Notes under the pieces: generated by a model
Database searches by the model: none
The model's input: the letters and a program-made list of their open reading frames with translations, nothing else
What the model was told of the DNA's origin: nothing
Part shown: one piece after another, positions 18 through 7,115 of the stretch
Layout: each line of letters begins with the position of its first letter
How positions within the stretch are numbered: the stretch's first letter is position 1
Origin: an uncultured bacterium
Lineage (GTDB): Bacteria > Bacillota > Clostridia > Christensenellales > HGM11417
NCBI GenBank assembly: GCA_905215695.1
Contig: CAJMQN010000002.1
Location: 134,610-198,609, forward strand
Direction: 5' to 3'
DNA: 64,000 bases
Program-made: the position numbers and the translations under genes

Positions 18-3000
18 TTAAACCCTGCGCCTGCGGGCGATATACACGCCGCCAGCCGCCAAGACGAGAAGAAGCATCATTCCCCCGAATCCGCCCGAAG
101 CGTCCCCCGCGACAGCGCCGCAGCCTGTCTTTTCGGGTTCTTCGGGTTTCTCGTTGTCATCGCCGCTCCCCTTCCATTCAGCAAGCTTTTTCTCCGCGTC
201 GGTCAGTTTTTCATAATTCGTCACAAGCAGTTTTTGGCTGTCCGACGAGATTCCGTCGTAGAGGTCGCGCGCCGCCTTGATTCGGGCTTCGAGTTCCTCG
301 CTGTAGGAGAGGACTTCCCCGATTCCGTCGATCGCGTTGATGACGGAGAAGGTGTAAGCGTCCGCCGCCGCAGGACCGTCGAAGATGTGTTCGAAATAGT
401 TCTCCCAAATATAGTTGTCGTATCCGACGCCGTTCGAGGGCTTCGACATGAAGATGCCGCGGAAGGTGCCGAACAGGTCATAGAAGTTGTCATAGTTGTA
501 CTGCGGCAATGACGTCTCATAGAGATACGCCTCGAGCGTCGGGGCTTCGTAACTCAAAAATTCGTATGCCTGAAGATTCCCGCAGCGGTAGAAGGACGCC
601 GCGCCCACGGATTTGAGGGTTGCGGGCAGGGTCACAGAGGTCAGATAACTGTTATAACAGGCGGCATACGGCTGTATCCGCACCGTGCCCTCCTTGATAC
701 GGTAGGTCGCCCCCGTCTTACCCGAGGGATAACACGCAAGCTGATAGCCGCCGTTGGGCAGGATTTCGTAGAGAACGCCGTCCTCGACAAAGAAGTGCGC
801 GTTGCCCTCCGCAACCGTAATCGCGTCGCACTGCATGAGTGCTCCGAACGCGCCCGCGCCCACTTTTTCGAGCGTTGCGGGCAGAGTCGGATTTGTCAGT
901 TTGGTGTTATAGAAAGCGAGGTCGTATATCTCCTCTGCAACAGGGAAACTCGCCTCCTTCAGCTTACTGCAACCGTAGAACGCCCGCTCGCCGATGGCTG
1001 TGACCTTGGGCATAACAACTTTTTGCATATTGTTCGCGTACATGAAAGCGCCCGCGCCGATTCCCGTCGCTTCGGGAAGGGTTACGTCACCGAGGGAGGC
1101 GCAGTTCTGGAACGCCATTGCGTCAACGGTCGTCGCGCTCGCAAAGTCCACGTCGCGCAGAAGAGAACAGTTGTAGAACGCCGCGATTCCAATGTATTTC
1201 ACTCGGGGCATTTTTACCGTCTCGAGGTTGGTGCAACCGTAGAACGCGGATTCGTATATTTTCTCAAGGTTGGGCATGGAAATCGAGGTCAAAGACGTGC
1301 AGTTGTAGAAGGTTTGCGAAATCCGTTCCTTACCCGCGTACTCCTCCGCGCCCAAAACCTCGAGACTGTCAAAGGACAGGTCTTTCAGCTGGGTGCAGTC
1401 CGTGAACGCGAACGCGCCGATGCGCTTGACGTTAGCGAGATTTAAGTTTTCAAGCCCGGTACAGAAGGCAAAGGCATAGTTGCCGATTTCCTCCACAGAA
1501 GCGGGAATCGTCACCGTCGTCAAAGCCTTGTGAACGGAATCCTCGAGCACAACAACGTTGCCCCAATCGTCCACCGTAAAGTTCGGACCAAACGCAAAGT
1601 CTCCGATGACCGTCGCACCTTCGGCAAAACTGACGCTCTCCAACGCGGTTGCGCGCTGGAATACGTATTCACCCATTTCGGTGACCGCGGAGAGTTCGGC
1701 GGTACGCAGTTTGGAGCAGGCGCGGAACACCGTATCACCCAGCTTTTTTACGCTCGCCGGCAAAGATATCGAGGTCAGATTCTCGCAGAGGAAGAAAGCG
1801 TCCGTACCGATTTCCGTCAGACCCGAGGGGAGCACTATCGTACGGATTCCCGTATTCGAGAGCGCAAGTTCGGGAAGCACCGTCAGTTTGCTCTTTTCCG
1901 GCTCATTGAAAGTCACAATGAGAGAGGTCGAGCCGCTGAACGTTCCGATACCAAGCTCGGTCACCGACACCGGAACCGCTATACTGTCGAGCGCGATACA
2001 ACGCGAGAATGCGTAGTCACCCACGCTCTTCAAGCTGTCGGTGAAAGTCACATTGGTCAGTTTTCTACAGTCGTAGAATGCGTAGGCGCCGATGCGCTCC
2101 ACCCCGCCGAGATCAATCGAGGTGACATCCTCCCGCGCGGAAAATGCGCCCGAAGCGATTTCCTTGACGCCGGCAGGAATCGTGTAGCCCGTCAGATTCG
2201 CCCTATTCGGAATGAGCAGAAGGCTGACTTTGCTTCCGTTTTCGATTCCGTAGAGAATTCCGTTTTCCGCCGCGAAACGGGTACTGCCCGACATGACGCT
2301 GAATTCTTCCAGATTGGTACAGCCCGCAAAGACCTGCGCGCGGACATCCGAGAGTACCGCATTCTTGGAGACGAGCACGCTCATAAGCGCGGTGCAGTTC
2401 TGGAAAGCATAAGTTCCAAGCGTTTCCAACCCGTCGGGAAGTTTGAGGGTGGAGAGAGAGGTACAGCCCGCAAATGCCTGCTGTCCGATTTCACGCACGT
2501 TCTTTCGGAAGGTCACGCTTGTGAGTGCGGCGCAGTTTTGGAACGCCATGGTGCCGATGCTGTCGATGTCCTCCGTGAATTTTACGCTCGTCAAGGAGGA
2601 GCAATTCTGGAACACACGATTCGGCAGAGAGGGCGATGCAATGCTCAAGGTAAGGAGTCCGGTACAGTTCGAGAACATCCCCTCGGAGAGCACCGTGTGC
2701 GGTTCCATGATGACTTCGGTCAGACCGGTGCATTTATAAAACATATTTGTGCCCGGCATACGCAGATTGGTAATATCCACCGAGCGCAGAGACGCGCACT
2801 CGGAGAAGGCGCTCTGCCCCGCTACAACGAGCATCGAAAGATCGACATCCGCAAGCTGTTTGCAACCCGAAAAGACCGATGCGCCGATGGTCAGCCCCGT
2901 CTTGGGAGCCTCGAGGTTGATATCGTTGAGCTTACTGCATCCGGCGAACACAGAGTCCTGCATGATCATCAGCGAGGACGGAAGCGTCACTTTTGTCAGA

Positions 3001-7115: not shown

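Follow-up and report, generated by a model that had tools for sequence, protein, structure and literature searches.

The window analysed here is a 64,000-nucleotide stretch of contig CAJMQN010000002.1 (positions 134,610 to 198,609) from an uncultured bacterium of the Christensenellales, and a gene at positions 18-7115 of its minus strand encodes a 2365-residue surface protein in which a subtilase is joined to an array of leucine-rich repeats (LRRs). This protein is probably a cell-envelope proteinase, similar in type to lactocepin and C5a peptidase, that would be tethered C-terminally to the cell and carry out proteolysis at the surface. As judged from profile matches and alignments, the catalytic half falls within the cell-envelope proteinase branch of peptidase family S8, and the LRR half is a genuine array of PF13306 repeats. 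A preliminary description of this DNA had proposed the same order of parts, i.e., a proteinase of the cell-envelope/C5a-peptidase type, Ig-like modules, and a BspA-type LRR array, and this architecture was found to be correct by Pfam and Foldseek. The open reading frame (ORF) runs unbroken from the ATG at 7115 to the stop codon at 18-20, and its length of 2365 residues is that of every database gene call of the protein. The preliminary description gave the same interval and length and lacked the strand; a plus-strand reading of 18-7115 was rejected, as its translation is riddled with stops. The features of the gene product are as follows.

18-7115, minus strand: complete coding sequence of the subtilase-LRR surface protein, 2365 residues plus stop (ORF translation)
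7050-7115, minus strand: signal peptide MKYKKIACLLISAILLCNTGCA, residues 1-22, with a cysteine motif at Cys17 and Cys21
6615-6926, minus strand: I9-like prodomain, residues 64-167 (weak Pfam Inhibitor_I9 match, AlphaFold2 fold, Foldseek)
5109-6488, minus strand: Peptidase_S8 catalytic domain, residues 210-669 (Pfam PF00082, E = 2e-40, 139 bits)
6459-6461, 6249-6251, 5958-5960, and 5289-5291, minus strand: codons of the catalytic residues Asp219, His289, Asn386, and Ser609, respectively
5469-5687, minus strand: PA insert inside the S8 domain, residues 477-549 (Pfam, E = 7.8e-15)
4656-5012, minus strand: fn3_5 domain, known from C5a peptidase, residues 702-820 (Pfam, E = 3.2e-14)
3195-4397, minus strand: four Ig-like β-sandwich domains, residues ~907-1307, the last two Big_2-like (AlphaFold2, Foldseek)
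561-3185, minus strand: BspA-type LRR_5 array, residues 1311-2185, about 30 units of 22-23 residues (Pfam and a profile of the protein's own repeats)
336-560, minus strand: conserved post-LRR cap, residues 2186-2260, with the motif P.NG.GYD..W..YF (family alignments)
174-299, minus strand: the "helical segment" of the preliminary description, residues 2273-2314, a family-conserved pattern in the consensus
21-155, minus strand: tripartite C-terminal tail, residues 2321-2365 (NCBIfam, hidden Markov model [HMM], and search of representative proteins)

The subtilase is complete, with the D/H/S triad and PA insert that had been described, as shown by Pfam and by the alignment of the catalytic residues of 120 homologues. 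Asp219, His289, the oxyanion residue Asn386, and Ser609 are invariant in all 120 of these best homologues, and the PA insert aligns to that of C5a peptidase and SpyCEP. The AlphaFold2 model of residues 31-700 has a predicted TM-score (pTM) of 0.78, and a Foldseek search with this model retrieved ScpB (1e-34) as well as ScpA and SpyCEP. In comparison with the diverged allele L088 (dS = 0.60), the ratio of nonsynonymous to synonymous substitution rates (dN/dS) is 0.050 for the whole ORF, 0.027 for the S8 domain, and 0.065 for the LRR array. Its values lie between 0.014 and 0.068 for every domain, beginning with the prodomain and ending with the post-LRR region, and are higher solely in two short bins, the signal peptide (0.14) and the 50-residue tail (0.31). 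Since the invariant catalytic residues are intact and purifying selection is strong, the mature enzyme would be expected to be an active endopeptidase.

In the same model, residues 64-167 take the shape of a β-α-β-β-α-β domain with block-mean values of the predicted local distance difference test (pLDDT) of 76-92, and a disordered linker (residues 167-186) separates this domain from the catalytic domain. Pfam Inhibitor_I9 matches residues 123-167 with an E-value of 1.4e-3 and 19.7 bits, below its gathering score of 21.2. Foldseek also matched the model to unprocessed pro-subtilisin E (3whi) and pro-Tk-subtilisin (2e1p), with alignments that span 630-667 columns of the 670-residue query and target-normalised TM-scores of 0.69-0.77. 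The modelled N-terminal domain probably occupies the position of a subtilase propeptide; the propeptide-like region of the preliminary description has a counterpart in an I9-like predicted fold and a weak Pfam match.

The AlphaFold model of residues 835-1345 is all-β and contains four β-sandwich units (mean pLDDT = 71.5; block means mostly 64-89 across residues ~1005-1315). Its top PDB matches in Foldseek are invasin, cadherin ectodomains, and Big_2 segments of LigA, in agreement with the Ig-like modules proposed earlier; Big_2 itself is a weak Pfam match in this protein and is listed for most homologues. The LRR_5 array that follows is matched by PF13306 in nine stretches with an E-value of 1.5e-152 and 500.5 bits. 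When the repeats of the protein itself were used to train an HMM, it found 29 units between residues 1355 and 2184, 5 of them weak partial matches, and two degenerate units lie outside these matches, which gives a total of approximately 30 over roughly 855 residues. The array and its length of about 850 residues were therefore described correctly, and the count falls at the low edge of the 30-35 units that had been estimated. The units are arranged in three blocks, each of which opens with an F..E(D/N)G(V/I)L(Y/K) connector (at residues ~1311, 1614, and 2107). The nearest solved LRR proteins by sequence are the structural-genomics LRR_5 structures 4fs7, 4gt6, and 4h09, TpLRR (6mlx), and PcpA (4cp6). 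The same PF13306 repeats make up BspA, TpLRR, and PcpA, where they are stand-alone and adhesin-like, whereas here they form the C-terminal half of a protease.

The fusion of S8 and LRR_5 is not the unusual architecture that the preliminary description had implied. As delimited by sequence similarity, it is a large family of gut Clostridia and Bacilli, with members in no fewer than 80 genomes counted at species level. Of the top 120 relatives in the databases, nearly all have 2230-2580 residues, most are 35-40% identical to the protein at 85-99% query coverage, and all carry the same Pfam set, including the few whose best local alignment is partial. A scan of one genome per species gave at least 522 relatives, and the best 80 of these loci, which were examined, are full length with 32-41% identity; the genome counts of the family are accordingly lower bounds. 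The records of the relatives name Christensenella, Christensenellaceae, Candidatus Borkfalkia, Scatosoma, Gallimonas, and the cultured Anaerocaecibacter muris, together with Oscillospiraceae (Faecousia, Avispirillum) and Bacilli of the Anaeroplasmataceae/"Staphylococcus sp. CAG:324" type; all isolation sources that are stated are animal gut, caecum, or faeces. The protein of A. muris CLA-AA-M11 (locus L037) has a C-terminal transmembrane segment and basic cluster and lacks Gly-Cys. In 18 of the 80 genome loci, the S8-LRR gene has additional LRR_5 ORFs beside it. Literature searches for the S8+LRR_5 fusion found no characterised member. In gut lineages that have received little study (Christensenellales-like Clostridia, Oscillospiraceae, and RF39-type Bacilli), few families of surface proteins are as large as this one, and knowledge of the protease substrate would reveal how these organisms use or act on host or dietary proteins. 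Two S8-LRR paralogues per genome were observed in two cases, at loci L025 and L077 (contig JAFQFT010000058.1) and at loci L009 and L082 (one metagenome-assembled genome).

From these parts we envisage the following course. A Sec-type signal peptide, as predicted from the sequence, would direct export; the I9-like prodomain would aid folding and then be self-excised, as its fold and the habits of the family suggest, taking any N-terminal anchor with it. The C-terminus would then hold the enzyme on the cell, with the catalytic domain at the tip of a stalk of ~1500 residues made up of five β-sandwich domains and the LRR solenoid of ~30 units. The solenoid would most likely bind protein or glycan ligands, or the two LRR_5 lipoproteins that are encoded downstream (see below). 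The C-terminal tail would act either as a plain type I anchor or, by analogy with MYXO-CTERM, as a sorting signal that is modified at its cysteine and cleaved.

The tail consists of an acidic, proline-containing linker, the motif T-G-C2332-G, an Ala/Gly/Leu-rich transmembrane segment (residues ~2339-2360), and a terminal RRRRV (...NEKPEEPEK-T-G-C2332-G-AVAGD-ASGGFGGMMLLLVLAAGGVYIA-RRRRV), a sequence for which the preliminary description was accurate. Both GCG and RRRR are invariant among ten alleles. When the tail alone was compared with NCBIfam, it scored 24.8 bits against the MYXO-CTERM model (TIGR03901; cutoff 20), which was not listed in the scan of the full-length protein; GVDTG_CTERM reached 25.7 bits against a cutoff of 29. 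An LPXTG/sortase anchor was rejected: the protein has no such motif, TIGR01167 scored 14.2 against 15.9, and Gram_pos_anchor stayed below its cutoff. A tail of the same kind is found on one other product of the window.

52809-56063, minus strand: second tail-bearing secreted protein, unrelated to the first, 1084 residues; tail at 52812-52946 (KPEEPEK-GGCGGCG, transmembrane segment, RKRIK)

This 1084-residue protein has no Pfam domain and is set in a cluster of sugar ATP-binding cassette transporter and glycosidase genes. Its tail alone scored 21.7 bits with MYXO-CTERM, above the cutoff of 20, and in 13 full-length alleles GGCGGCG and the transmembrane segment are invariant, whereas the acidic linker is variable.

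A profile of 44 positions was built from 23 tails and searched against 1.84 billion representative proteins, among which it gave 233 matches at E<=1e-3. When the top 150 were inspected, the matched segment stopped at most 3 residues from the C-terminus in 143. The tails are strikingly uniform (e.g., EEKKGCGSSVSVAGLALVAALGTCTVFVAKKKED), with the consensus of an acidic/Thr/Pro linker, (E/K)K(K/G)-G-C-G-S, an Ala/Gly-rich transmembrane segment, and a terminal KKKED. Around the cysteine, in 146 tails, glycine occupies position -1 in all 146, lysine position -3 in 95, glycine position +1 in 109, and serine or glycine position +2 in 144. A signal-peptide-like N-terminus is present in 46 of 53 full-length carriers, which include CBM9-like, GDPD, Big_3, and GDSL proteins and proteins that combine DUF4832/DUF4874 with Flg_new. 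The tail is a portable C-terminal module of unrelated secreted proteins. A second HMM, made from 139 of the retrieved tails in which no 8-mer of the training set recurs, was run on 539 ORFs of the window and found the S8-LRR protein (25.8 bits for the whole sequence, E = 1.8e-7, match at residues 2353-2398 of the 2399-residue stop-to-stop ORF) and the 52809-56063 protein (17.9 bits), both at the extreme C-terminus with E<=5e-5; all other ORFs had E>1. Independence of this HMM is incomplete, since both tails of the window had contributed to the profile by which its tails were collected. The S8-LRR protein diverges from the rest of this class in its longer spacer and in ending with RRRRV in place of KKKED. 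Typical tails are matched above cutoff by no model of NCBIfam 20.0 or Pfam, and literature searches for the motif strings of the tail returned nothing relevant.

Cysteine-containing C-terminal signals in the literature comprise MYXO-, JDVT-, Synerg-, and CGP-CTERM, which occur in Myxococcota and other lineages and are served by myxosortases of the CPBP family (PMC11980579; 10.1101/2023.06.07.544157). MYXO-CTERM proteins require the type II secretion system to reach the outer membrane (PMC11980579), and the 2023 preprint on such signals makes no mention of Firmicutes or Clostridia (10.1101/2023.06.07.544157). The tails described here share the tripartite build of these signals, i.e., an invariant cysteine motif, a transmembrane segment, and a basic C-terminus, and likewise sit on diverse passengers; they differ from MYXO-CTERM, the domain of TIGR03901 and TIGR03382, in having their own consensus and in that the nameable carriers are Clostridia/Eubacteriales. 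By this analogy, the tail may be cleaved or lipidated. Our tentative proposal, which we would place somewhat short of probable, is that it represents a widespread and unannotated, MYXO-CTERM-like sorting signal of monoderm gut Clostridia, in which the cysteine would be modified (perhaps lipidated) and the transmembrane segment removed by a housekeeping enzyme. It is also quite conceivable, though again we would not call it probable, that the tail is a mere type I membrane anchor that stays uncleaved, and that its Gly-Cys either has no role of its own or takes part in something else, such as a disulfide or juxtamembrane acylation.

The survey of chain ends in 190 family members bears on both possibilities. 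A transmembrane segment with a basic cluster closes 153 of the 190 proteins; by class, 127 have a plain transmembrane segment, 26 have Gly-Cys plus a transmembrane segment, and in 37 no transmembrane segment was detected. A plain anchor accords with the prevalence of transmembrane and Lys-rich anchors in the family, some with cytoplasmic tails of up to 84 residues, and with MYXO-CTERM scores that are marginal for our protein and below the cutoff for most tails of this type. It accounts less well for the invariant Gly-Cys with its strong preferences at -3, -2, +1, and +2, for the position of the module at the extreme C-terminus of unrelated exoenzymes, for the build that it shares with known cleaved sorting signals (PMC11980579; 10.1101/2023.06.07.544157), and for the length of what follows the membrane segment: all 26 of the Gly-Cys tails in the family end 5-10 residues after it, as compared with 3-84 residues for plain anchors.

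Other observations weigh against a processed signal. The cysteine motif appears dispensable for the basic function of the family because most members have cysteine-free plain transmembrane anchors. No sorting enzyme (CPBP, sortase, or rhomboid) was found near the tail genes in the window or at loci L085-L087, which also speaks for a plain anchor, and a crude regular expression for the CPBP motif, itself weak evidence, located no CPBP-like ORF near tail genes in the window or over 88 loci. The lineage departs from that of MYXO-CTERM, as the relatives and neighbouring carriers are Clostridia, Eubacteriales, and Bacilli. If the tail is a processed signal, cysteine-dependent C-terminal sorting, for which experimental proof has so far come from Myxococcus only, would extend to Gram-positive gut bacteria, with exoenzymes attached to lipid or wall through their C-termini. 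It would then allow hundreds of exoenzymes to be annotated by their tails and would point to a new sorting enzyme, and the tail may matter more than the protease. Unrelated ORFs with Gly-Cys or Ser-Cys, a transmembrane segment, and KKK at the C-terminus were also seen near the S8-LRR gene at L038 (225-3341, plus strand; 26003-27076, minus strand) and L048 (2339-3604, minus strand), two metagenome-assembled genomes of Eubacteriales whose own S8-LRR proteins have no such tail.

The closest known systems to the catalytic half are ScpA/ScpB and SpyCEP, which have in common with our protein the S8 domain with PA insert, fn3_5, the catalytic residues, an N-terminal prodomain (a predicted one in our protein), and the build of a large multi-domain surface protein. 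Their alignment to it is collinear over residues 202-860 with E-values of 1e-61 to 2e-72 (including 7edd and 5xyr). The streptococcal enzymes differ in that they carry an LPXTG sortase signal and no LRR array, and they can be aligned over residues ~200-860 only; to this common part our protein adds the four Ig-like domains, the ~30 LRR_5 units, and the Cys/transmembrane/Arg tail. Assignment to existing NCBIfam families failed: NF040553, for the LPXTG-anchored SGO_0316/SGO_0317, gave 253 bits against a cutoff of 1400 in a protein without LPXTG, and the scores for the HupY/LrrG and Gli349 families were far below the cutoffs. Lactocepins place a surface subtilase on a long stalk and supply peptides to the Opp transporter; they are built with A, B, and H domains, are anchored by LPXTG or by S-layer-type elements, and in many cases depend on PrtM. 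The likeness to PrtP, PrtB, and PrtH is one of concept and not of sequence comparison, and lies also in the presence of an OppA-like gene in the same gene row; no PrtM-like gene was found among the genes annotated near the S8-LRR gene.

The window starts 17 nucleotides past the stop codon of the S8-LRR gene, so that all downstream genes fall outside it. On contigs that extend further (L001-L003 and L088), the gene is the first of a same-strand row, in which the next gene begins 20 nucleotides past the stop. The row comprises two LRR_5 + Flg_new lipoproteins (1074 and 1238 residues), a 75-residue zinc-ribbon/transmembrane protein, a 410-residue lipoprotein, and an 848-residue SBP_bac_5 (OppA-like) protein; the three lipoprotein genes carry the canonical lipoboxes LAAC, LSGC, and LAGC. 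The role of the S8-LRR protein suggested by its domains is most likely extracellular protein degradation at the cell surface, and a nutritional use is favoured on account of a single neighbouring gene, the OppA-like SBP_bac_5 gene of the same row.

As the main alternative, the enzyme may cleave host or competitor proteins (chemokines, complement, immunoglobulin, mucins, or peptide signals) with the LRR array as a targeting adhesin, in the manner of ScpA/SpyCEP, a role that we regard as rather unlikely. It would suit the closest solved or curated relatives, which are ScpA/ScpB, SpyCEP, and the SGO_0316/0317 family; the adhesins PcpA and TpLRR among the LRR_5 relatives; the animal-gut origin of every relative with a stated source; and the protein change in the LRR region, which is ~2.4 times as fast as in the catalytic domain. 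It is plausible that the array would guide the protease to its target. The dN/dS of the LRR region, however, is so low that diversifying selection is not indicated, and the family also occurs in Bacilli with reduced genomes, for which peptide scavenging is plausible.

The N-terminal sequence is MKYKKIACLLISAILLCNTGCAEI. The preliminary description had noted a lipobox-like LCNTGC and had concluded that the protein is anchored at both ends. The letters LCNTGC are present, and NTGC is conserved in ten of ten alleles; neither cysteine fits the two lipobox patterns in the form used here. Cys21 is preceded by N-T-G at positions -3 to -1 and Cys17 by I-L-L, with leucine at -1; both fail PROSITE PS51257 (by inspection) and G+LPP (by regular expression) as written out for this analysis, and for Cys21 this is due to the asparagine at -3. 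The sequence G-C-A|E is an acceptable type I signal-peptidase site under the -3/-1 rule. From the sequence, type I cleavage after GCA would be as possible as lipidation. In the 190 family members, a canonical lipobox ([LVI][ASTVI][GAS]C at the end of the signal peptide) was found in 68 and a signal peptide without a lipobox in 116; 52 combine the lipobox with a C-terminal transmembrane segment, so that doubly signalled precursors do occur in the family.

A doubly anchored protein, in which Lgt and Lsp would produce a lipidated N-terminal cysteine, the C-terminal transmembrane segment would be retained, and an ectodomain of 2300 residues would be looped between them, could draw on those 52 members, on the LGGC-type lipoboxes of the closest relatives (P0008, P0012, and P0020), and on the conservation of NTGC. 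We nevertheless consider it improbable, in view of the non-canonical cysteine motif with its alternative type I site, of the I9-like prodomain and disordered linker that stand between signal peptide and catalytic domain, and of a C-terminus that goes beyond a plain transmembrane segment. Subtilases, such as subtilisin, ScpA, and PrtP, normally excise their own prodomain autocatalytically. The signal peptide is connected to the catalytic domain by way of the I9-like prodomain, whose excision should therefore leave the mature enzyme with the C-terminal attachment alone. Attachment by the C-terminus alone has to be set against several points: the removal of the prodomain is argued from the behaviour of the family, the Pfam score for I9 is below gathering, the N-terminal fragment of SpyCEP remains bound after cleavage, and the N-terminus may be lipid-modified.

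A chimeric misassembly, as contemplated in the preliminary description, or a decaying pseudogene fusion of protease and LRR genes can be dismissed, since no evidence in its favour was found, though LRR_5 genes adjoin the gene, and it is refuted by the recurrence of the identical 2365-residue protein in independent samples put together by different assemblers (Logan contigs and one of 529 kb from ENA among them, with lengths up to 591 kb), by alleles free of frameshifts, by the low dN/dS throughout, and by the at least 80 species that share the architecture. The 90% cluster has 22 members, and each of ten full-length alleles that were compared has 2365 residues, with as many as 141 substitutions and without a frameshift. 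The LRR_5 gene that comes first downstream is split into overlapping ORFs of 635 and 456 residues at L002 (17118-20337; strain ENA ERZ925280) and is a single ORF of 1074-1075 residues on three other contigs; the split at L002 is a frameshift that may be either real or an assembly error.

Two elements lie 5' of the S8-LRR gene.

7326-7355, minus strand: promoter-like site TTGACA-18-TATACT, 11 of 12 matches, by consensus match only
7116-7325, minus strand: structured 5' leader of ~210 nucleotides, fold z-score of -5.9 relative to shuffled sequences, and terminator scan

A ribosome-binding-like GGAGG is located at 7129-7125, 5' of the ATG. Ahead of it the leader contains two terminator-like hairpins, the second at 7169-7200, each followed by a U-run. 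The Rfam search of the leader matched no family, and the leader may be an attenuator or an unrecognised riboregulator of the protease gene. The upstream neighbour, on the opposite strand, encodes a YitT/DUF2179 membrane protein, and other nearby genes have housekeeping or sugar-related functions (Band_7, fucose isomerase, AraC, EF-G, and S7). Elsewhere on the minus strand of the window, three ORFs of 777, 424, and 430 residues (35309-37642 and 49358-51921) have no Pfam match at E<=1e-3, and the region 39123-47025 encodes two α-L-rhamnosidase-like proteins, a GDSL esterase, and a GH42 β-galactosidase, an ordinary carbohydrate-utilisation context.

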